Shown here: positions 1 to 15,020 of the stretch, piece after piece | Position numbering within the stretch: position 1 is the stretch's first letter | Layout of the letters: every line of letters starts with the position of its first letter | From: a virus | Taxonomy: Duplodnaviria > Heunggongvirae > Uroviricota > Caudoviricetes | Length of the DNA: 22,545 bases | IMG/VR virus record: IMGVR_UViG_2778261065_000029 | Location: 1 to 22,545 of that record | Reading direction: 5' to 3' (one strand) | Program-made: the position numbers and the translations under genes | The notes under the pieces: generated by a model | Databases searched by the model: none | What the model was told of the DNA's origin: nothing | The model's input: only the letters and a program-made list of their open reading frames with translations

Positions 1-1251
1 GTGCTTACCGATACAAAATTAAAAAACCTCAAGCCGCAGGACAAACTGTACAAGGTCTCCGATCGTGACGGGCTGTATGTAGCTGTGCTTACGTCAGGCA
101 CGGTCTCGTTTCGCTATGACTACCGTATCAACGGTCGCCGCGAAACACTGGTAATCGGGCAGTATGGGCGTGACGGTATCAGCCTGGCAGAAGCGCGAGA
201 AGAACTGATTGCTGCAAAGAAGCTGCTTAAAGCAGGCCAGTCGCCGGCTGCGGCTAAACGTGACGGTATCAAAAAGATTCGTGGTGCCGAGACGTTTGCG
301 GTACATACCGACAGTTATATGAAACACGTCATCCTGGCTGACAGTACCCGCGCAATGAAGCAGGCGGTGATCGACCGTGACATACTTCCGGTTCTTGGCA
401 ACAAAATGATGGCTGAAATTACCACATCGATGGTTCGTGATTTGTGTGACCGGATTGTCGAACGCGGTGGTCGGGCAACAGCAGTACAGGCCAGGGAGAT
501 CATCAGCAGCGTATACCGTCACGCCAATGACCGTGGTCATGGTTTGTTTAATCCTGCGGCTGACATTAAACCTTCGTCTATCGCCATATTTAAACCACGA
601 GAGCGAACACTGACACCAGAAGAAATTGGCCTGTTCTTCCGCACGCTGGATGCCATTGGTGCTATGGGCACTATGAAAATGGCTTTAAAGCTGGTGCTTA
701 TCACTATGGTTCGTAAAGGCGAATTCACCAATGCAACGTGGGATGAAATAGATTTTAAAAAATGGACATGGACAATTCCTTCAGACCGCATGAAGGGAAG
801 CCGGGCGCACGTTATTTACCTGCCTAAACAGGCACAGGATATATTGGTTGGGTTGCAGATGTGCGCTGGTGGAAGTGAATATCTGGTTCCTGGTCGTTAC
901 AATTTCCGGAAGCCATTATCTAATGCCGCGCTGAACTCTCTGATCGACAGAACGGTGAAAATAATAAATGAAGATGGTGAGCATATTCAGGGCTTCACCG
1001 TACACGATATGCGCCGTACAGCCAGTACGTTGTTGCATGAGGCTGGTTATCCTTCAGACTGGATTGAAAAGGCTCTGGCACATGAGCAGAAAGGTGTGCG
1101 CGCCGTATATAACAAAGCGGAATACGCCAGACAGCGCGCCTACATGTTGCAGCAGTGGGCCGATATGATTGATTCCTGGATTAACGGGGAGCATACGGAT
1201 CTGATTCCGTTCTCCCCGTCGAAGTTTGAGAAGTGGATGGCGGGGGAATAA
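1..1251 (+). CDS. int: Tyrosine recombinase / phage integrase (P4-like family); 5' end may be cut by the window edge
   Basis: 416-aa ORF starting at window position 1 (GTG). N-terminal KLKNLKPQDKLYKVSDRDGLY arm-type segment and C-terminal catalytic-region residues (HDMRRTAST, LAHE, VRAVYNKAEY with terminal Tyr) typical of tyrosine integrases. Family call from memory. Confidence 0.85.
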   Translation: MLTDTKLKNLKPQDKLYKVSDRDGLYVAVLTSGTVSFRYDYRINGRRETLVIGQYGRDGISLAEAREELIAAKKLLKAGQSPAAAKRDGIKKIRGAETFAVHTDSYMKHVILADSTRAMKQAVIDRDILPVLGNKMMAEITTSMVRDLCDRIVERGGRATAVQAREIISSVYRHANDRGHGLFNPAADIKPSSIAIFKPRERTLTPEEIGLFFRTLDAIGAMGTMKMALKLVLITMVRKGEFTNATWDEIDFKKWTWTIPSDRMKGSRAHVIYLPKQAQDILVGLQMCAGGSEYLVPGRYNFRKPLSNAALNSLIDRTVKIINEDGEHIQGFTVHDMRRTASTLLHEAGYPSDWIEKALAHEQKGVRAVYNKAEYARQRAYMLQQWADMIDSWINGEHTDLIPFSPSKFEKWMAGE

Positions 1252-1254
1252 CGT

Positions 1255-1449
1255 TTAATAGTTCTGCTGATTTTCTTCCATCTCTGCTTCTGCTGCCAGT
1301 GATTCAATTTTGTTTTCGAATATTGCTGACAGTGTTGCAAATTCAGCATCAGTGACGGCGGGAATTGGAACAAACCTGATCCCGCTGTGTGCAAGCATGT
1401 TTGCAGTTTCAAGGCATTTTCTTAAATCTGCTGGTGATGCCCTGTTCAT
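1255..1449 (-). CDS. Hypothetical small protein (64 aa), translationally coupled to the upstream methyltransferase
   Basis: ATG at 1449 overlaps the methyltransferase TGA stop (ATGA on the minus strand). Track ORF 1255..1569 trimmed to the internal Met (MNRASPADL...). No recognisable domain. Confidence 0.35.
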   Translation of the reverse strand: MNRASPADLRKCLETANMLAHSGIRFVPIPAVTDAEFATLSAIFENKIESLAAEAEMEENQQNY

Positions 1450-2096
1450 GCAGCACGCTCCCGCCCCTGGTTGTCTGTTGGTGACAGCGGAGAATTGCTG
1501 AATGCATTTGTTAATCCGCCAATATCCAACGCGTATCCAGGGTGTAGTTGCACTGCCGGGTCTTCGCACTGATTACCCCAAACATCGAAGCCATGAGACG
1601 ACTGGCGGGCGAATAGTTCAATGCGAGAAACATCGCCTAACAATTGCACAAGTTTTTCACGAACGACATCTGGTTTTCTTGAGTGCTCAAGCCGCGGTGC
1701 GGTAAATGACTGAACGATCCCTGCATTAATGCGCGGAGGTAGTTTTCCCTTTACCGCAAACAGGCAATCTTCACTATTGGCGCGAGTCATGTGTCCCATA
1801 CCCATAACAAGTTTATCTGGTTGTCGACTACCACATTTTATCCACGTGAAGCCCTTCATCGTCATCAGACGGAATCCCCAGGCTTCAACAACTTTTAGTG
1901 CTTCGAGTGGTTGTGTTGGCACCCACCACATGGCCAACAGACAGTTTTCATCGGCCAAATCCCACACAGGAAGGCGGCAGATATCCAGCACACTCATAAC
2001 CGGATATTTAAAACCGGCACCGCGATTACCATCTGCGGCTTTGTCCCGGTATACCCAGGGTGGATCTGCATAGATTAGTGTGTATTTCTTAGTCAT
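1446..2096 (-). CDS. DNA N6-adenine methyltransferase, MT-A70 / phage Dam-like family
   Basis: N-terminal LIYADPPWVY (DPPW catalytic motif) with downstream conserved hydrophobic blocks (LAMWWVPTQ, WGF). Start placed at ATG 2096 (MTKKY) with GGGTGG upstream, not the GTG at 2108. Confidence 0.8.
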   Translation of the reverse strand: MTKKYTLIYADPPWVYRDKAADGNRGAGFKYPVMSVLDICRLPVWDLADENCLLAMWWVPTQPLEALKVVEAWGFRLMTMKGFTWIKCGSRQPDKLVMGMGHMTRANSEDCLFAVKGKLPPRINAGIVQSFTAPRLEHSRKPDVVREKLVQLLGDVSRIELFARQSSHGFDVWGNQCEDPAVQLHPGYALDIGGLTNAFSNSPLSPTDNQGRERAA

Positions 2097-2388
2097 AAAC
2101 CACCCCACAACATCCTATGCCGCTATAGTCGCCACGGCGAAGGCCGTTACCTTTTGTGATACATTGGTCCCTGCGAACCGCGATCCTTGCACGTTCAACA
2201 TCACCAGAAGCAACATCCATACACTGAAGCCAAAGGTGGGCGGCAATGCGGAACTGCCCTTTTTTCTCTCTTTCAATCGCGCGTTTTTCGATCTCTATCG
2301 CCGCAGGAGTAACGGCGACAATCTTTGACGGACTGCGCATTGAAACCTTGTTCATGTGATATTTTTCAAGTCGGCTTAACTTTCTCAC
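2089..2388 (-). CDS. Hypothetical protein (start uncertain: GTG 2388, ATG 2355 or ATG 2340)
   Basis: ORF whose TAA stop overlaps the methyltransferase start (ATGACTAA), suggesting translational coupling. No recognisable domain and a weak ribosome-binding site. Confidence 0.3.
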   Translation of the reverse strand: MRKLSRLEKYHMNKVSMRSPSKIVAVTPAAIEIEKRAIEREKKGQFRIAAHLWLQCMDVASGDVERARIAVRRDQCITKGNGLRRGDYSGIGCCGVVYD

Positions 2389-2497
2389 TTAATCCAACCC
2401 TCTCTGAAAATTAATGCCAGCAGATAAAGCCATGCTGAAACAGAGGCCAGGAATAAGTACCATCCTGACCATTTGCTCCAGTGCCTTAGCAGCGCAC

Positions 2498-2746
2498 TCA
2501 TGCAGCGTTGCTCACGGGACGATATACACGTTGCTGAACAGGAGGTTTTTTACCCTGGAACTCTGCCGGGCTTGCTGCCTGACGTTCATCAAGCCAACGC
2601 TCAACTTCGTCACGGTTCCATGCGCAGCGTTTGTCAGTGATATACCAGCGTTTAGGAAATTCCCCTGCGCGCTCCATACGGTCGATAGTGCTCCATGACA
2701 GTGGCACCACCGCCAGGAGTTCCTTCTTACCTAATGCACCTTTCAT
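2498..2746 (-). CDS. AlpA-family / excisionase-like small DNA-binding protein
   Basis: 82-aa ORF with a winged-helix-like segment (LSWSTIDRMERAGEFP...WNRDEVERWL) resembling AlpA/Xis regulators. GAGAGG ribosome-binding site upstream of ATG 2746. Confidence 0.6.
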   Translation of the reverse strand: MKGALGKKELLAVVPLSWSTIDRMERAGEFPKRWYITDKRCAWNRDEVERWLDERQAASPAEFQGKKPPVQQRVYRPVSNAA

Positions 2747-2795
2747 AAATACCTCTCTTGGTTGCAGTGCGGCGCGTGTGGCGCCGCGGTGGTGG

Positions 2796-3677
2796 TTACA
2801 TAGATGTTTCGTTTAATTCTTCCCGACGAACGCTGTAAACGTCGGTGGCTTTTGCCAGCAGTTCGTCATCATCTGAAAGTTTTTGTGCAATGTATTTGTA
2901 AGCCTTATCCAGTTCGGAGACAGTGCTGTAATTCATCGCTGCGCTGGTAAAGGCCATCAGCATTTCTTCTGGATCACGGCTATCCGCTTTACGAGTTTGC
3001 TCATCAGGCTTTTTCACTGGTTTAGCGTTGATCAGACTGTTCATTCCCGCAGCAGTAGTTGTTTGCGGAGTAATGTCTCGCTCAACGCGCGGTGCCGTTT
3101 CCTGTAATTCGTCAGGGGTGTAAACACCGAGAAGCACATCAGGAGCGTGCAGGCGAGCCCATCGTTTCGTGCAAAGATAGGCAAGCTGCTGGCGCGGATC
3201 CTGTTCCCACAATGGAGAGTTACGCACTCCGGCTTGCGCCATACTGATGGTAAGCTCACGGGGTTCTGCTTCTCCTTTAAGAACTGCTGACACAGTTACC
3301 GTCAGATTCGGTGATTTATCTGTTTTGCCGTTAACATTCGACCAGTCACCGCTCCAGCGATAATTCAGGCGTGTCGCTAGCAGGCTGGAAGAGGATACGA
3401 CCGCGTTTACCAACTGTGCTTCGTAGCCTAACGTTCCGTTTACCACATGCGTTTTCTGCGCCACGGCGAAAGGGTTCATTCCCCACTGTGCCGCCTGCAT
3501 GGTCACCGCCAGACAATCGGCAGTTTTGCCTTCAAGATGTTTCGGTACAGTCGCTTTGCTTTGTGACATCAACTCCGCGAAACGCACCAGTTGATTCATG
3601 CCCTCCGGGCTGAAGATTGCCGCAGCAGTACCTACAGTTGCGCCTGGTTGTGATGTGATTGCGATATCATTGCTCAT
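2796..3677 (-). CDS. RecT/Redbeta-family single-strand annealing protein
   Basis: 293-aa ORF with a conserved core (QAAQWGMNPF...GYEAQL) and an ERDITP segment also present in lambda Bet. ATG overlaps the stop of the upstream exonuclease (ATGA). Confidence 0.8.
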   Translation of the reverse strand: MSNDIAITSQPGATVGTAAAIFSPEGMNQLVRFAELMSQSKATVPKHLEGKTADCLAVTMQAAQWGMNPFAVAQKTHVVNGTLGYEAQLVNAVVSSSSLLATRLNYRWSGDWSNVNGKTDKSPNLTVTVSAVLKGEAEPRELTISMAQAGVRNSPLWEQDPRQQLAYLCTKRWARLHAPDVLLGVYTPDELQETAPRVERDITPQTTTAAGMNSLINAKPVKKPDEQTRKADSRDPEEMLMAFTSAAMNYSTVSELDKAYKYIAQKLSDDDELLAKATDVYSVRREELNETSM

Positions 3678-4495
3678 ACGTACATATCCTGTTTACGTGC
3701 CCAGTCAGGGCGTTTAATAATTTCCACGCCGCCCCATTCATCATTGATGCGGCATTCGTGATAGGTATTCAGATCCCGGCGGAACAGAGCGTGCCCGGCA
3801 TCGACATCCGGCGCATCCAGCTCGAACACGCGTACCGGATACCGACCACAATCAATGCTTTCGCTCACGGCAAGAAAGAAAAAACCATGCGACTGACCAG
3901 TAACCCTCATTGCGCCTTCGCGGTACATTGCGTCCTGCACGTGGTAGCGGAATTCCTCGATGTGGCGTGCAAAACGATCCATATCTGCAACCTTTTTCAC
4001 GTCGACGATCACGTTGTGCTCGTTCAGCCATTTGTCTGGACGAATGCGGCACAACTCACCAGTCTCTTCATCATTCCAGTACATTGATGCTTCGCAGTAA
4101 CCAGGTGCTTCCAGCATCCAGCGTGCCGCCGGGTGAGCCATTGCGCTATCACGCATCAGCTCCAGTTTCCGCCACTGCTCGGCATCAAGTACCGTAATCC
4201 CCATATCCGCTACATCACGAAGAAATGCTTCTTCGTCAGCTTTACCTTGTTTCGTCCGACGATCGAACTTCGGTGAAACAATGAAGCGTTTGTCGAATTC
4301 TCCAGGCTCCAGAAGCAGAGAGTGCAATGCGGTTCCCATATCCAGTGCAGACTTTTTCTCTTCGTCTTCTGGTGCTGCCTGAACCCATTTAAGAAGCGCC
4401 GGATTCTTGGCAACCATGTCCAGTTGCGACTTACTCACGCCGTCACCGGCGTGGTAGTCTTCGTTGCTGATGTCGAAATAAATTCCCGGTTTCAT
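3674..4495 (-). CDS. PD-(D/E)XK exonuclease (exonuclease VIII / DUF3799-like), partner of RecT
   Basis: 273-aa ORF with N-terminal GIYFDISNEDYHAG...SKSQL and the catalytic-type motif VIVDVKK. Adjacent and coupled to RecT as in RecET/Red modules. Confidence 0.7.
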   Translation of the reverse strand: MKPGIYFDISNEDYHAGDGVSKSQLDMVAKNPALLKWVQAAPEDEEKKSALDMGTALHSLLLEPGEFDKRFIVSPKFDRRTKQGKADEEAFLRDVADMGITVLDAEQWRKLELMRDSAMAHPAARWMLEAPGYCEASMYWNDEETGELCRIRPDKWLNEHNVIVDVKKVADMDRFARHIEEFRYHVQDAMYREGAMRVTGQSHGFFFLAVSESIDCGRYPVRVFELDAPDVDAGHALFRRDLNTYHECRINDEWGGVEIIKRPDWARKQDMYV

Positions 4496-4792
4496 GCCGC
4501 TTCCCTCTGCCCATCAATCCGATCCGCCAGATCCCAGCGGGCGATAATTGCCATTGCCTCGCGACGGTAGGCATCCATAAGTTCTTCGAACTCAGGGCTG
4601 TCTTTAGCTGCCTCCAGCACTTCCTGGCGAACGCCTTTGCCTGTTACACCGTCAAAAGTTGAGGCCAGTTGATGAAGCCGGATGCTATCAATCAGTTCAA
4701 CTTGTCGGTCATATAGCTGTTCTGACAGGCGGTAGTCCTTGTCGAATGCCAGCATGATTTTTTGAAGATTTTTCTGCTGATTAACGTTCATA
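4492..4792 (-). CDS. Hypothetical protein (99 aa) immediately upstream of the exonuclease in the operon
   Basis: ATG at 4792 preceded by GAGGTGGG; track start GTG 4797 judged less likely. Stop overlaps the exonuclease start (ATGA). No clear similarity to lambda Gam from memory. Confidence 0.5.
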
Positions 4793-4798
4793 CCCACC

Positions 4799-5833
4799 TC
4801 AATATTTGATATACGCGTCCTGCACTTTGCCGCCAGCGATAGCCAACATTGCTTTCTGCGCGAATTCTTCGGGAATGCCTTGGGCTATCAGATCTGCGAT
4901 TACTCTGCTGTTAACGGTACGGCGATGCTCTTTATCTGCAGCTCGGCGCGATTCTTCGTCGGCGATACGCTTCTGTTCGTCAAGGCGGGCTTTTTCTGCC
5001 GCCTCTTGGCGTCGGCGTTCCTCGGCAACGGCTTCTTCTTTTTCGCGTCGTGCACGCTGCTCTGCTTCAATTCGCTGACGTTCTGCTACTTCAGCACGTG
5101 CTTTTTCTTCCGCCGCCAGGCGTTCCGCAGCCTCAATTTCAGCTTTCGCTTTTTGTTCAGCTTCGAGCCTGGCCTGTTCAGCAGCTTCCCGGCGGATATT
5201 CTCTTCTCGCTCAATGCGCGCTTTTTCCTCCGCTTCTTTGCGAAGTCGCTCCAGCTCAGCGGCTTCATGCTCGCGTTTTTGAGCTACTGCGAGTGATTCT
5301 TCCAGTTTCTGGATGGTTGAATCCTTGGCTACTCCAGCTTCTGCTGCGTACTCCTGCCAACTTTCATCAAGTGCTACTGATTTAGCCTCTTGAATTCGTT
5401 CCTGAATATCAGATGATGGCAAGTAGTTTCCGGAGAGATCGATCACGTCAGCTAGTGCTCGCAAATTTGTCAGGCGTTGTTGCAGTGCTTCAGTGCGTAA
5501 TTTCTCCGCATTTTCCCACTCGGTGAGTGGGCGGCGTACTTCATCACGAAGCCGATCGCATTCGGTTACGAAGCGTCGTAACTCTGCTTCAACTACTTTC
5601 GGCTGTTCTTTCAGGCGTTTCAGATAATCACGTCCTGGTTTTTCTACCGCTGTTTTACTTCTTGAAACCTTCGCAGCCAGAGATGCAATGCGCTTTCTGC
5701 CTTTGTCTGTGCTAATGTCAGGCACTTCATTAACACCTTCACGGATCTGCTCGAGAAACTTTTCCAGCCCTTTTTCAACGTAAATTCTTGGTGCCATGTC
5801 TGGTGTGATTTCGATGATTGATAATTCACTCAT
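4799..5833 (-). CDS. Phage coiled-coil protein with a C-terminal E/A/R/K-rich (TolA-like) low-complexity repeat
   Basis: 344-aa ORF. Residues ~190-300 are almost entirely E/A/R/K/Q heptad-like repeats (EAEQKAKAEIEAAERLAAEEKARAEV...), visible in the DNA as GC-skewed repetitive sequence at ~4960-5290. Confidence 0.6.
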   Translation of the reverse strand: MSELSIIEITPDMAPRIYVEKGLEKFLEQIREGVNEVPDISTDKGRKRIASLAAKVSRSKTAVEKPGRDYLKRLKEQPKVVEAELRRFVTECDRLRDEVRRPLTEWENAEKLRTEALQQRLTNLRALADVIDLSGNYLPSSDIQERIQEAKSVALDESWQEYAAEAGVAKDSTIQKLEESLAVAQKREHEAAELERLRKEAEEKARIEREENIRREAAEQARLEAEQKAKAEIEAAERLAAEEKARAEVAERQRIEAEQRARREKEEAVAEERRRQEAAEKARLDEQKRIADEESRRAADKEHRRTVNSRVIADLIAQGIPEEFAQKAMLAIAGGKVQDAYIKY

Positions 5834-5991
5834 TTGCTAACCTCCTCCCATATCTCGTTATCGTTGGCCACATCGCGAGCTTCTTTGCTGACGAAAGCCC
5901 ACTTAATGCCTTCCTGTAAGGTGCGGAACTTCCAGCTCATGAATCCGCATGCAGTAACGCAGTACCAACCGTTGATGATTTTCCACTGCAT
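5830..5991 (-). CDS. Small ORF (53 aa), first gene of the leftward early operon; not in the supplied track (below size cutoff)
   Basis: ATG at 5991 preceded by GAGGTAAC; TGA stop overlaps the ATG of the next gene (ATGA). Trp/Cys-rich hydrophobic N-terminus (MQWKIINGWYCVTACGFMSW). Confidence 0.3.
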   Translation of the reverse strand: MQWKIINGWYCVTACGFMSWKFRTLQEGIKWAFVSKEARDVANDNEIWEEVSK

Positions 5992-6010: not shown

Positions 6011-6025
6011 TTACCGTTGAGGTAA
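6011..6025. promoter_or_regulatory. Operator-like palindrome TTACC-GTTGA-GGTAA (PL-like region)
   Basis: Perfect 5-bp inverted half-sites with a 5-bp spacer; one of nine copies of the same motif in intergenic regions. Confidence 0.5.
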
Positions 6026-6053
6026 TAATTATGCGTATCTGGTTTGATGTCAA
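6026..6053 (-). promoter_or_regulatory. Candidate PL-like promoter for the leftward early operon
   Basis: Minus-strand perfect -35 TTGACA (plus coords 6048-6053) with an A/T-rich TAATTAT -10-like element ~16-17 bp downstream. Flanked by operator copies at 6011-6025 and 6073-6087. By-eye prediction only. Confidence 0.3.
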
Positions 6054-6100: not shown

Positions 6101-6123
6101 AAAAAAGCCGCCATAAGGCGGCT
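6101..6123 (-). terminator. Intrinsic terminator downstream of the repressor gene
   Basis: Minus-strand hairpin AGCCGCC-TTAT-GGCGGCT followed by a U6 tract, about 20 nt after the repressor stop codon. Confidence 0.6.
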
Positions 6124-6144
6124 TACTTACTGAAAAATATGATT

Positions 6145-6729
6145 TTATTGTTTGTTTTTTTCGTTCTGGTTGATGACAAATTCAATGTAACTTTCGATCT
6201 TTGCCTTCTCTGTTTCAGGTAACAATGCGTAGCGCGAGCGGTCATAGTTGATAGTTGCAGGGTCATGCGGATGAATCAGTAGTTCATATCCGTGACGCCC
6301 GAATGCAGATGCAACATTCTCCAGGGTGGAAATGGAAACGCTGACCTCATTGTTTAACAGGCGGCTGATTGTCACCTGGGCGACGCCGGATGCGCGGTGA
6401 AGTTTTCCCTGTGTTGAAAGGTCGCGGCTTTCGCTCATCCAGCGTTCCAGGTTGTGAGCCGCCAGCTGACCAATGTCGCTTGGGCCGACAGGCTGAAAAC
6501 CTTCCTGAGAAAGCGAGCGATCGATATCAAGCCAGTTACGGGGTTTATTGGCGGCAGCTTCAATTTTTCGCGCAACCTGGTCGCCGATAACCTTCTTGCC
6601 AAGAGCCCAGCGGTTTACCAGATTTGCCTGAGTTCCAAGTTTTTCTGCCATCCGCGTCTGAACACCATTGAATTCACGGTCGATCAAGTCGTTGAGATTT
6701 TGCCTGCGGACGTCCTGGATACTTTTCAT
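6145..6729 (-). CDS. CI-like immunity repressor candidate with two HTH motifs and no LexA/S24-type peptidase domain
   Basis: 194-aa ORF divergent from a Cro-like gene across an operator-rich region. HTH-like segments QTRMAEKLGTQANLVNRW and RASGVAQVTISRLLNNEVSVSISTLENVA. No Ala-Gly cleavage site or Ser/Lys dyad context recognisable. Confidence 0.6.
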   Translation of the reverse strand: MKSIQDVRRQNLNDLIDREFNGVQTRMAEKLGTQANLVNRWALGKKVIGDQVARKIEAAANKPRNWLDIDRSLSQEGFQPVGPSDIGQLAAHNLERWMSESRDLSTQGKLHRASGVAQVTISRLLNNEVSVSISTLENVASAFGRHGYELLIHPHDPATINYDRSRYALLPETEKAKIESYIEFVINQNEKNKQ

Positions 6730-14943: not shown

Positions 14944-15020
14944 TGGCGTGGCATGCAGGATTCGAACCTGCGACCGACCGCTTAGAAGGCGGTTGCTCTG
15001 TCCAACTGAGCTAATGCCAC
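14944..15020 (-). tRNA. tRNA-Arg (anticodon UCU), argU-like, with encoded CCA
   Basis: Minus-strand 77-nt sequence GTGGCATTAGCTCAGTTGGACAGAGCAACCGCCTTCTAAGCGGTCGGTCGCAGGTTCGAATCCTGCATGCCACGCCA folds as a cloverleaf: 7-bp acceptor stem GTGGCAT/ATGCCAC, D-arm GCTC/GAGC, anticodon stem ACCGC/GCGGT with loop CUUCUAA, T-arm GCAGG-TTCGAAT-CCTGC. Near-identical to E. coli argU apart from stem substitutions (from memory). Confidence 0.85.

Follow-up and report, generated by a model that had tools for sequence, protein, structure and literature searches.

Gene map and transcription of the locus

We analyzed a 22,545-nt stretch of a Caudoviricetes genome (IMG/VR record IMGVR_UViG_2778261065_000029, positions 1 to 22,545; hereafter, the window), focusing on an adenine methyltransferase gene and its neighbors. 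The relevant features are as follows.

1–1251, plus strand: tyrosine integrase with P4-type arm-binding and catalytic domains (Pfam Arm-DNA-bind_3, Phage_int_M, Phage_integrase)
1255–1449, minus strand: 64-aa lambda Orf63 homologue (DUF1382), with which the early-left operon ends (PF07131, phrog_292, PDB 8DSB)
1446–2096, minus strand: 216-aa MT-A70-family (class beta) N6-adenine methyltransferase, ATG start (PF05063, phrog_359)
2055–2066, minus strand: catalytic motif IV DPPW, methyltransferase residues 11–14, read as GAT CCA CCC TGG
2089–2388, minus strand: 99-aa PerC-family small protein, GTG start (PF06069, phrog_868)
2385–2501, minus strand: 38-aa single-pass membrane protein of the epsilon15 gp32 / phiV10p35 type (phrog_17484, E 2.6e-27)
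2498–2746, minus strand: 82-aa AlpA-family excisionase/regulator (Pfam Phage_AlpA, 24.2 bits; cut-off 21)
2769–2787, no strand assigned: GC-rich hairpin GCGGCGC-gtgtg-GCGCCGC without a T-run, lying between recT and the alpA-like gene
2796–3677, minus strand: RecT, upstream in the same operon (Pfam RecT; RefSeq annotation)
3674–4495, minus strand: PD-(D/E)XK exonuclease, upstream in the same operon (Pfam DUF3799; RefSeq annotation)
6025–6053, minus strand: candidate early-left (pL-type) sigma-70-like promoter TTGACA-17-AATTAT (promoter/terminator scan)
6105–6124: terminator of the repressor gene, with the candidate promoter just downstream
6145–6729: repressor gene

The window covers the left half of a prophage of the phiV10 type (Uetakevirus) whose insertion adjoins guaA. 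Over its full length it is 99.9% identical to a guaA-yfgI prophage, and the RefSeq gene order is guaA, then int. The segment from 1200 to 2800 is 98.7% identical to phiV10 and present in 561 of 5426 complete E. coli genomes, with MT-A70, PerC and DUF1382 annotations; the locus is thus already known and annotated (phage phiV10), in a common E. coli prophage. The integrase marks the left end of the prophage beside guaA and converges on the operon, ending 3 nt short of the stop codon of the 64-aa open reading frame (ORF). The initial annotation had described a coupled three-gene cassette next to the integrase, made of the methyltransferase and flanking ORFs of 99 and 64 aa; all three ORFs are real, on the minus strand, and their position beside the integrase is as described.

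The ATGA-type junctions ascribed to this trio hold exactly for the methyltransferase and the 64-aa ORF, which share ATGA (1446–1449), and only loosely for the 99-aa ORF and the methyltransferase, which overlap by 8 nt, ATGACTAA (2089–2096). The chain does not stop at three genes. The 38-aa ORF overlaps the 99-aa ORF by GTGA, the AlpA/Xis-like gene overlaps the 38-aa ORF by ATGA, and the end proposed for the cassette, position 2497, falls inside the 38-aa ORF. Five genes are coupled in this way: AlpA/Xis-like, 38-aa membrane, PerC-like, methyltransferase and Orf63-like. The AlpA-like protein matches phrog_66 (“excisionase and transcriptional regulator”), and the 38-aa membrane protein, annotated in both phiV10 and epsilon15, has 44–82% identity across epsilon15-like loci (tblastn).

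Joined by overlaps of 4–8 nt, the five genes should therefore be read off one transcript, which probably begins at the candidate promoter near 6040. The promoter and terminator scan, in itself weak evidence, called no minus-strand terminator-like site between this promoter and position 1255. The hairpin at 2769–2787 was likewise not called by the terminator scan; epsilon15 has a stem-loop annotated for transcriptional pausing at the corresponding site. A start near 6040 would therefore place expression of the five genes on infection or induction, and not in stable lysogeny. Expression of the chain in lysogens may also occur; the homologue in the Stx2a lambdoid phage phiPA8 reportedly depends on a promoter that is switched on as cells approach stationary phase (PMC10810198).

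The two small flanking proteins

The two small ORFs had been taken to lack recognizable domains, which proved wrong for both. The 64-aa ORF, preceded by a Shine-Dalgarno-like GGGAG 8 nt upstream of its ATG, matches PF07131 over positions 1–60 of 60 (E 1.8e-30; 105.2 bits against a cut-off of 27), as well as phrog_292 and, over residues 2–62, PDB 8DSB (E 8.5e-13). The latter is the NMR structure of lambda Orf63, a protein with an intertwined dimer fold that is equated with DUF1382 and has a cleft binding an amphipathic helix (PMC10869804). DUF1382 occurs in 362 phage records, lambda and 434 included, and in many of them, lambda too, the match is not annotated beside a methyltransferase.

The segment is the counterpart of the lambda exo-xis region, that is, of non-essential early accessory genes in the interval from the recombination genes to the integrase. 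In the exo-xis regions of lambda and Phi24B, Orf63 is also one of the early-left accessory genes of this interval, although the integrase is convergent in the window and co-directional in lambda. To our knowledge, lambda encodes no methyltransferase, and its exo-xis region has no PerC-like gene. By analogy with Orf63 of lambda and Phi24B, the only ones for which a pro-lytic phenotype has been shown, the homologue would be an independent accessory gene encoding a dimeric pro-lytic developmental protein, and not an enzyme subunit.

The 99-aa ORF matches PF06069 (PerC) over residues 35–80 with 30.1 bits (cut-off 22.6) and phrog_868 with E 5.7e-62; its score against NCBIfam ANR (23.6 bits) is below the cut-off of 32, and a PDB sequence search returned chance-level matches only. 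Its small size and prophage location are shared with EPEC PerC and the EHEC prophage Pch proteins, all of PF06069, although its Pfam match is weak (30 bits), if above the gathering score. The phrog_868 subfamily is found only in 36 records of epsilon15-like and related Klebsiella and Enterobacter phages. We propose that this protein is probably a small regulator encoded by an independent accessory gene, and not a subunit of the enzyme; the PerC family is associated with transcriptional activation, for example of ler/LEE. Its gene starts later in RefSeq (83 aa) and in phiV10 (88 aa). The 99-aa reading is correct: divergent relatives have kept the motif K-L-T/S-R-L-E-K-Y-H at the N terminus, as well as a position-1 start codon, and have not kept the internal ATGs; both annotated starts should be moved upstream.

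An orphan MT-A70 methyltransferase close to M.EcoGV

That the central gene encodes an MT-A70 adenine methyltransferase was borne out: residues 5–176 cover positions 1–172 of the 172 of PF05063 (78.6 bits; cut-off 23.9), phrog_359 is matched with E 6e-120, and PADLOC assigns the class MTase_II. PDB sequence matches are Tetrahymena MTA1 and METTL3, with RIELFAR of the window enzyme aligned to YLEIFAR of MTA1. DPPW lies near the N terminus with the SAM-binding region C-terminal to it, which is the order of class beta. This motif is nearly invariant (at least 90%) over 17 aligned homologues, and the phiPA8 homologue no longer functions once it is changed to APPA (PMC10810198).

The core is 83% identical (155 of 187 residues) to phiPA8 gp5, that is, M.EcoPA8orf6770P, and 82% identical to the equivalent protein of the Stx2a phage P8983, itself 99.5% identical to phiPA8 gp5. 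The window enzyme also shares the variable-loop allele of the phiPA8/M.EcoGV type (KCG..R.(P/T)DKLV, RINAGI(V/I)QSF). From sequence comparison, it appears to belong, as a stand-alone class-beta N6-adenine enzyme, to the M.EcoGV / M.EcoPA8orf6770P subfamily. The alignment to phiPA8 gp5 goes no further than residue 187, and the remaining ~29 residues differ wholly: the C-terminal ~27 residues of the STEC type, proposed to bind the partner protein PNB-2, are not found in the window enzyme, whose own tail matches part of a separate 63-aa ORF at other loci.

Other candidate relatives were set aside. Hia5, Hin1523 and Nma1821 are Dam-related DPPY enzymes and not MT-A70 (PMC3299994); M.EcoGIX, encoded on a plasmid, is a DPPY enzyme that acts specifically on single-stranded DNA; M.EcoGI and M.EcoGII form a separate non-specific type, distinct from the GATC-specific M.EcoGV; and a survey of ParB-CTPases mentions only archaeal ParB-MT-A70 fusions.

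Pfam and PADLOC recognize neither a restriction endonuclease nor a defense system in the window, where all neighbors belong to other families, and the ~40-kb prophage of a genome that is 99.9% identical over the window has no annotated endonuclease anywhere along its length. PADLOC places the enzyme among Type II methyltransferases; in contrast to a Type II restriction-modification system, it has no endonuclease. Without a restriction partner, the methyltransferase is therefore an orphan, as initially proposed.

Turnover of the neighboring genes

We compared the surroundings of the gene among its relatives. In the 80 best IMG/VR loci, the gene that follows the methyltransferase encodes DUF1382, a NinI phosphatase or one of at least six other unrelated ORFs, and these swaps nearly always occur at the same ATGA junction. 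DUF1382 is thus exchanged for the phosphatase or other ORFs with the methyltransferase and PerC unchanged. The preceding gene varies too: close relatives carry PerC, a DUF1317-like gene, DUF1382, or ORFs of 95, 160 or 203 aa; in epsilon15, a 35-aa ORF intervenes between PerC and the methyltransferase, and some homologues have no adjacent small ORF within ~680 nt upstream. Homologues with 70–84% identity are found in regions devoid of PerC and DUF1382: behind lysis genes, next to an RloB/AAA module, or flanked by NinB and NinD.

Flanking genes swapped at the overlap junctions, together with homologues in unrelated contexts, argue against a dedicated three-gene unit. Such a unit, co-inherited and with the small ORFs acting as specificity modulators or as a toxin/antitoxin-like pair, would account for the overlapping junctions of the trio and for its conservation in phiV10-like prophages. 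However, the overlaps run on into two further genes, both small-protein families are known outside methyltransferase contexts, and the trio is conserved among near-identical phages only, which is therefore a matter of vertical inheritance. The toxin/antitoxin idea fares no better: the small ORFs have no matches to toxin/antitoxin or defense families in Pfam, NCBIfam or PADLOC, they are not adjacent, with the methyltransferase in between, and one of them is replaced independently of the other. The comparative data largely refute the dedicated cassette, and we regard it as very improbable.

The methyltransferase and DUF1382 nevertheless adjoin each other in three arrangements: DUF1382 follows the enzyme gene here, does so again in Stx2a phages, and precedes it in three further loci (L082–L084). 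This recurrent adjacency could be more than shared location.

Substrate of the methyltransferase

Relatives, of which three are of known specificity, point to GATC as the target. M.EcoGV is the type found in O104:H4-type Stx2a phages and is nearly identical to M.EcoPA8orf6770P; according to PMC10810198, its overproduction alone led to GATC methylation in vivo, and PMC6602927 also gives its target as GATC. PMC10810198 warns that GATC methylation upon overexpression could be off-target. The enzyme p32 of Serratia phage BZS1 was GATC-specific in MboI/DpnI assays and is 41% identical to the likewise GATC-specific M.EfaBMDam of Tn1549 (PMC7556043). Both are of the same Pfam family as the window enzyme and of similar size, although identity, which we estimated through homologues named in the literature or inferred from context, is only moderate. 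Links to the two assayed enzymes are indirect. The window enzyme has 43% identity to a Klebsiella-phage enzyme of the BZS1 type, named as a homologue in PMC7556043, and 46% to an Enterococcus enzyme assigned by its Tn1549-like gene context; the latter two share only 38% identity. The BZS1-type gene, like ours, closes the early-left operon next to the integrase and has 4-nt overlaps, whereas BZS1-type enzymes carry a ~20-residue insertion in the variable loop that the window enzyme lacks. The number of GATC sites in the window (88, against 91 ± 9 expected) is uninformative on specificity.

An alternative is that the enzyme methylates adenines in a relaxed or non-GATC manner and shields phage DNA, on entry or during replication, from many restriction systems of the host, like M.EcoGII, Hia5 and PhiOS31_p25. 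The enzyme is phage-borne, has no restriction partner and lies in an early operon, and at 216 aa it has the size of a catalytic domain with no obvious recognition domain; relaxed-specificity phage adenine methyltransferases are moreover documented (PMC3299994, PMC7556043). We find this distinctly unlikely, since the documented relaxed enzymes are of other families (DPPY for Hia5 and M.EcoGIX, a separate type for M.EcoGI and M.EcoGII) and the assayed MT-A70 relatives of the window enzyme all methylate GATC, none of them being relaxed. HinfI and Hin1II sites, in particular, stayed sensitive in the presence of BZS1 p32 (PMC7556043).

Partner dependence and the published construct

A second alternative stems from M.EcoPA8orf6770P, which forms a 1:1 complex with PNB-2, the product of the upstream gene that overlaps it by 4 nt. 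Purified alone, M.EcoPA8orf6770P had almost no activity on DNA in vitro, dam- DNA included, and it was active, on 16S rRNA, only with PNB-2; the complex prefers 16S rRNA and 30S subunits, and it raised spontaneous induction (PMC10810198). The window enzyme could similarly be a core that is nearly inactive alone, sent to 16S rRNA or another RNA by the overlapping upstream PerC-like protein or by the downstream Orf63 homologue, and tuning prophage induction. The two systems share several features: an MT-A70 DPPW enzyme with 83% core identity and the same variable-loop allele, at the integrase-proximal end of the early-left region, with a small gene overlapping the enzyme start and a DUF1382/Orf63 gene after it. 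The PerC-like gene occupies the position equivalent to that of PNB-2, and all epsilon15-like loci examined that have this PerC subfamily also have the methyltransferase nearby.

Orf63 has its own claim to a partner role, with its helix-binding cleft (PMC10869804) and with DUF1382 also downstream of the methyltransferase in phiPA8, PA28 and P8983. We mapped the primers of the published “PNB-2 + methyltransferase” plasmid to phiPA8 positions 2056–3282, which include the whole of the DUF1382 gene, gp4; DUF1382 may therefore have had a role in the phiPA8 result. Primer mapping also ruled out PA28 gp06 as PNB-2: the real PNB-2 is the 143-aa phiPA8 gp6, of which PA28 keeps only a C-terminal remnant.

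On balance, we consider partner-directed RNA methylation unlikely in the window phage, an epsilon15-like podovirus. Unlike phiPA8, it lacks PNB-2 (143 aa, a predicted winged HTH protein) and PNB-1, and its upstream gene is PerC-like. PNB-2 has no BLASTP similarity to the PerC-like or DUF1382 proteins of the window, and tblastn with PA28 gp06, only the C-terminal stretch of PNB-2, found no match in the window or in any epsilon15-like locus; the putative PNB-2-binding tail is replaced by an unrelated one. The variable flanking genes of close relatives, the intervening ORF of epsilon15 and the homologues with no small ORF next to them upstream also speak against an obligate neighbor, as does the presence of Orf63 in lambda, which by established knowledge encodes no methyltransferase. 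The earlier suggestion that a small neighbor modulates specificity thus has a precedent in PNB-2, which is unrelated to either small ORF here, where the neighbors are exchanged.

Interpretation

We favor, with a probability of roughly 0.6, the following explanation as a whole: the segment closes the early-left operon, at its promoter-distal end, in a temperate podovirus of the phiV10/epsilon15 type (Uetakevirus), as an accessory tail in which a stand-alone orphan GATC methyltransferase is accompanied by independent PerC-like and Orf63-like genes. To judge from its relatives, the methyltransferase is most likely a Dam-like GATC enzyme made during lytic growth, and it most likely acts on GATC in DNA without the neighboring proteins, with which it shares an operon and overlap junctions. 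Class-beta enzymes are thought to act as homodimers, and by analogy this one is probably a homodimer too. It would top up limiting host Dam on rapidly replicating phage DNA.

A more speculative possibility, a long shot in our estimation, is that the MT-A70 core is modular and that interchangeable small proteins encoded at its junctions set the substrate, be it GATC DNA, 16S rRNA or another RNA; here the PerC-like protein, the Orf63 homologue, or both would take the role of PNB-2. If true, this would give lambda-type Orf63 or phage PerC-like proteins their first molecular function. The recurrent enzyme-Orf63 neighborhood and the unnoticed orf63 gene in the published construct are reason enough for a cheap experiment.

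For now, the value of the analysis lies in a clean re-annotation, by which a mystery cassette becomes an accessory region of the exo-xis type in a prophage that is very common in E. coli. The enzyme, a natural variant of the recently described Stx-phage enzyme with a different C-terminal tail and no PNB-2, would also be a handy control for asking if GATC DNA is what the family intrinsically methylates and could serve to gauge how much the partner contributes. Separately, we observed one natural fusion of PerC to the methyltransferase (P0001).

An overlapping chain of five genes

The locus is an ordinary one, already described in phiV10, epsilon15 and RefSeq. Over bases 1200-2800, the window shares 98.7% identity with phage phiV10 and 100% with the chromosome of a cattle E. 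coli. Of 5426 complete E. coli genomes, 561 contain this segment, and its annotation is everywhere MT-A70 / PerC / DUF1382. The left half of a ~40-kb prophage inserted between guaA and yfgI matches the whole window at 99.9% identity.

Genes and predicted sites around the methyltransferase gene
1-1251, plus strand, tyrosine integrase
1255-1449, minus strand, 64-aa ORF
1446-2096, minus strand, 216-aa ORF (methyltransferase)
2089-2388, minus strand, 99-aa ORF, GTG start
2385-2501, minus strand, 38-aa ORF
2498-2746, minus strand, 82-aa ORF
2796-3677, minus strand, RecT
3674-4495, minus strand, PD-(D/E)XK exonuclease
6053-6025, minus strand, sigma-70-like promoter (promoter scan)
6145-6729, repressor gene, its terminator just before the 6053-6025 promoter

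The initial annotation held in part, both as observation and as interpretation: the orphan MT-A70 gene and the overlaps stand, while the domain-less small ORFs and the three-gene cassette do not. The overlaps next to the integrase are real, but the coupled unit comprises five genes, and the cassette end proposed at 2497 falls within the 38-aa ORF. In transcription order, from the 82-aa to the 64-aa gene, the junctions read ATGA, GTGA, ATGACTAA and ATGA. One of the three proposed members, the 99-aa ORF, is a better gene call than those of RefSeq (83 aa) and phiV10 (88 aa), which start at internal ATGs (window 2340-2388, minus strand). In relatives 56-78% identical, the start codon at position 1 and an N-terminal motif, K-L-T/S-R-L-E-K-Y-H, are conserved, and there the positions of the internal ATGs hold Leu, Gln, Ala, His or Glu. 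Starting at the GTG at 2388, the gene therefore overlaps the 38-aa ORF.

Three genes without family matches lie in the same orientation between the exonuclease and the 6053-6025 promoter, and a terminator scan found no minus-strand terminator-like site from this promoter down to 1255. The integrase gene and this early-left operon converge, with stop codons 3 nt apart (window 1249-1257), and the scan called no terminator-like site between the integrase and the 64-aa ORF. As read from this layout, early-left transcription would continue antisense into int; RNase III sites are annotated around int in epsilon15.

Several other features of the region were recorded. Between recT and the alpA-like gene, which are 49 nt apart, lies a hairpin with a perfect 7-bp GC stem and no T-run (2769-2787); its epsilon15 counterpart is annotated as a transcriptional pausing stem-loop. 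RecT and the exonuclease (2796-4495) are separate overlapping genes, where the phiV10 record has a single 1761-bp RecE-RecT fusion. The early-left operon also encodes a highly charged, Ala/Glu/Lys/Arg-rich, coiled-coil-like protein of 344 aa (4799-5833, minus strand) with no match in Pfam or PADLOC; the stretch from ~4791 to 5844 has no phiV10 counterpart. Between the terminase and portal genes, the prophage carries a tRNA-Arg with anticodon UCU (14944-15020, minus strand).

The small ORFs belong to known families

The small partner ORFs had been described as lacking recognisable domains, which is wrong, since both match known families. The 64-aa protein is a DUF1382 protein (Pfam, E 1.8e-30) whose residues 2-62 align to PDB 8DSB (E 8.5e-13), in which lambda Orf63 was solved by NMR; Orf63 is an obligate dimer encoded in the exo-xis region and described as pro-lytic (PMC10869804). 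The 99-aa protein scores above the Pfam PerC threshold (30.1 versus 22.6) and aligns over its entire length with phrog_868, 'transcriptional activator' (E 5.7e-62); against the NCBIfam ANR model its score was under the cut-off. The 38-aa ORF encodes a conserved membrane protein (phrog_17484) and the 82-aa ORF an AlpA-type excisionase/regulator. That the small ORFs form a toxin/antitoxin-like pair is scarcely credible.

An orphan relative of a Stx-phage methyltransferase

By Pfam, the 216-aa protein belongs to the MT-A70 methyltransferases (78.6 bits versus a cut-off of 23.9); it has DPPW at residues 11-14, and its PDB sequence neighbours are Tetrahymena MTA1 and METTL3. It is a true orphan: as initially proposed for the window, no restriction endonuclease is recognisable there, nor in the remainder of the near-identical guaA-yfgI prophage, and across both PADLOC found no defence protein besides the methyltransferase itself.

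Close relatives of the enzyme, as of the 64-aa protein, have already been studied. Gong, Chakraborty and Koudelka characterized gp5 of the Stx2a phage phiPA8, M.EcoPA8orf6770P, which increases spontaneous induction and virulence in a DPPW-dependent manner (PMC10810198). Purified alone, it has almost no activity on DNA; gp6, the overlapping gene upstream, encodes PNB-2, with which the enzyme associates 1:1, and this complex prefers 16S rRNA and 30S subunits (PMC10810198). M.EcoGV, from an O104 Stx phage, is highly similar and, according to PMC10810198, methylates GATC in vivo upon overproduction alone. GATC specificity was also shown for the MT-A70 enzyme of Serratia phage BZS1, which shares 41% identity with another GATC-specific enzyme, M.EfaBMDam of Tn1549 (Bujak et al., PMC7556043).

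Our enzyme shares 155 of 187 core residues (83%) with phiPA8 gp5, whereas the last ~29 residues are unrelated; in Stx2a phage P8983 the counterpart gene shares 99.5% identity with phiPA8 gp5. With a BZS1-type Klebsiella-phage enzyme, a homologue of the assayed one, our enzyme shares 43% identity, and with an Enterococcus enzyme likened to that of Tn1549 by its gene context, 46%; between these two, identity is only 38%. Neither a tblastn search of the window with PA28 gp06, a remnant of PNB-2, nor BLASTP of full phiPA8 PNB-2 against the PerC-like and DUF1382 proteins gave a match, and by these comparisons PNB-2 is absent from the window.

Because studied relatives have GATC activity and PNB-2 is missing, we favor, with a probability of about 0.6, an enzyme with intrinsic Dam-like activity that would methylate GATC in DNA without a partner protein and would be expressed, on infection or induction, from the early-left transcript. 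If so, comparing the methylomes of a lysogen and a cured strain would probably show nothing, since lysogens may not express the gene and host Dam already methylates GATC. The window holds 88 GATC sites, in line with the 91 ± 9 expected by chance, a frequency that speaks neither for nor against GATC specificity. A promiscuous anti-restriction methyltransferase is improbable, because all examples of relaxed specificity come from other families. What remains of interest is a natural variant of the Stx-phage MT-A70 enzyme without PNB-2 and with a different tail.

Close homologues carry two discrete variable-loop alleles (methyltransferase residues ~86-100 and ~121-131 in our alignment), IKCGSRQPDKLV with RINAGIVQSF and HKTNKHKGNSAI with RMDASICQHV. 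Our enzyme has the phiPA8/M.EcoGV type and epsilon15 another allele. Loop alleles and tail types occur in mosaic combinations, and BZS1-type enzymes have a ~20-residue insertion at the loop position; the loops are possibly the target-recognition element. In the tail of the 216-aa isoform (1446-1530), the motif L-T-x-x-x-x-N-x-P-L-x-P-x-D-N-Q-G has its match inside a 63-aa ORF that is encoded separately, after a shorter isoform (196-199 aa), in five compared loci (L091-L095, ~4587-4779). The local alignment scores 60, versus 20 ± 4 in 2000 shuffles, and a gene fusion may have given rise to the long tail.

Mosaic neighbours of the methyltransferase gene

The methyltransferase has at least 595 relatives in IMG/VR, and we compared neighbours in the 80 best loci. 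There, the gene directly downstream is mostly DUF1382; the other loci have a NinI-type phosphatase of 219 aa or a small unrelated ORF, of which there are at least six kinds, and whatever its kind the downstream gene nearly always begins at the same ATGA overlap. Upstream lies PerC in 62 of the 80, all phiV10-like; in more divergent epsilon15-like loci its place is taken by a DUF1317-like gene of 52 aa, by DUF1382 itself or by an ORF of 95, 160 or 203 aa, and the overlaps are again 4 nt long, while epsilon15 has a 35-aa ORF between PerC and the methyltransferase. Homologues 70-84% identical were located in three further contexts, none with PerC or DUF1382 nearby: one group of E. coli phages carries them after the lysis genes, Klebsiella phages next to an RloB/AAA module, and P22-like phages between NinB and NinD. 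DUF1382 itself occurs in 362 phage records, lambda and 434 included.

These comparisons speak against a dedicated three-gene unit: with neighbours exchanged at the same overlaps, the overlaps are ordinary joints of a mosaic operon rather than a sign that the three genes function as a unit. In the phiV10/epsilon15-like family, this region is best seen as the equivalent of the lambda exo-xis region.

The same free exchange of both neighbours among phages weighs against the main rival to an enzyme acting alone, that the methyltransferase also needs a small partner, with the PerC-like or Orf63-like protein in that role. We consider this unlikely, even though the PerC-like gene sits where the PNB-2 gene does in phiPA8, and a methyltransferase is nearby in every examined epsilon15-like locus with this PerC subfamily. 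DUF1382, too, adjoins the enzyme gene in three arrangements, following it both here and in Stx2a phages and preceding it in three compared loci (L082-L084). Moreover, the primers behind the published 'PNB-2 + methyltransferase' expression plasmid (PMC10810198) map to 2056-3282 of phiPA8 (KP682374), from the gp6 start to the gp4 stop, an amplicon that holds the complete DUF1382/Orf63 homologue gp4, which PMC10810198 does not discuss for the 'holoenzyme'.

Two homologous proteins, P0001 (297 aa) and P0002 (263 aa), are rare in-frame PerC-methyltransferase fusions, found on one contig each, where small deletions in the 8-nt overlap have joined the two reading frames. Mutation or assembly error is the probable origin, but the proteins could act as natural tethered constructs.
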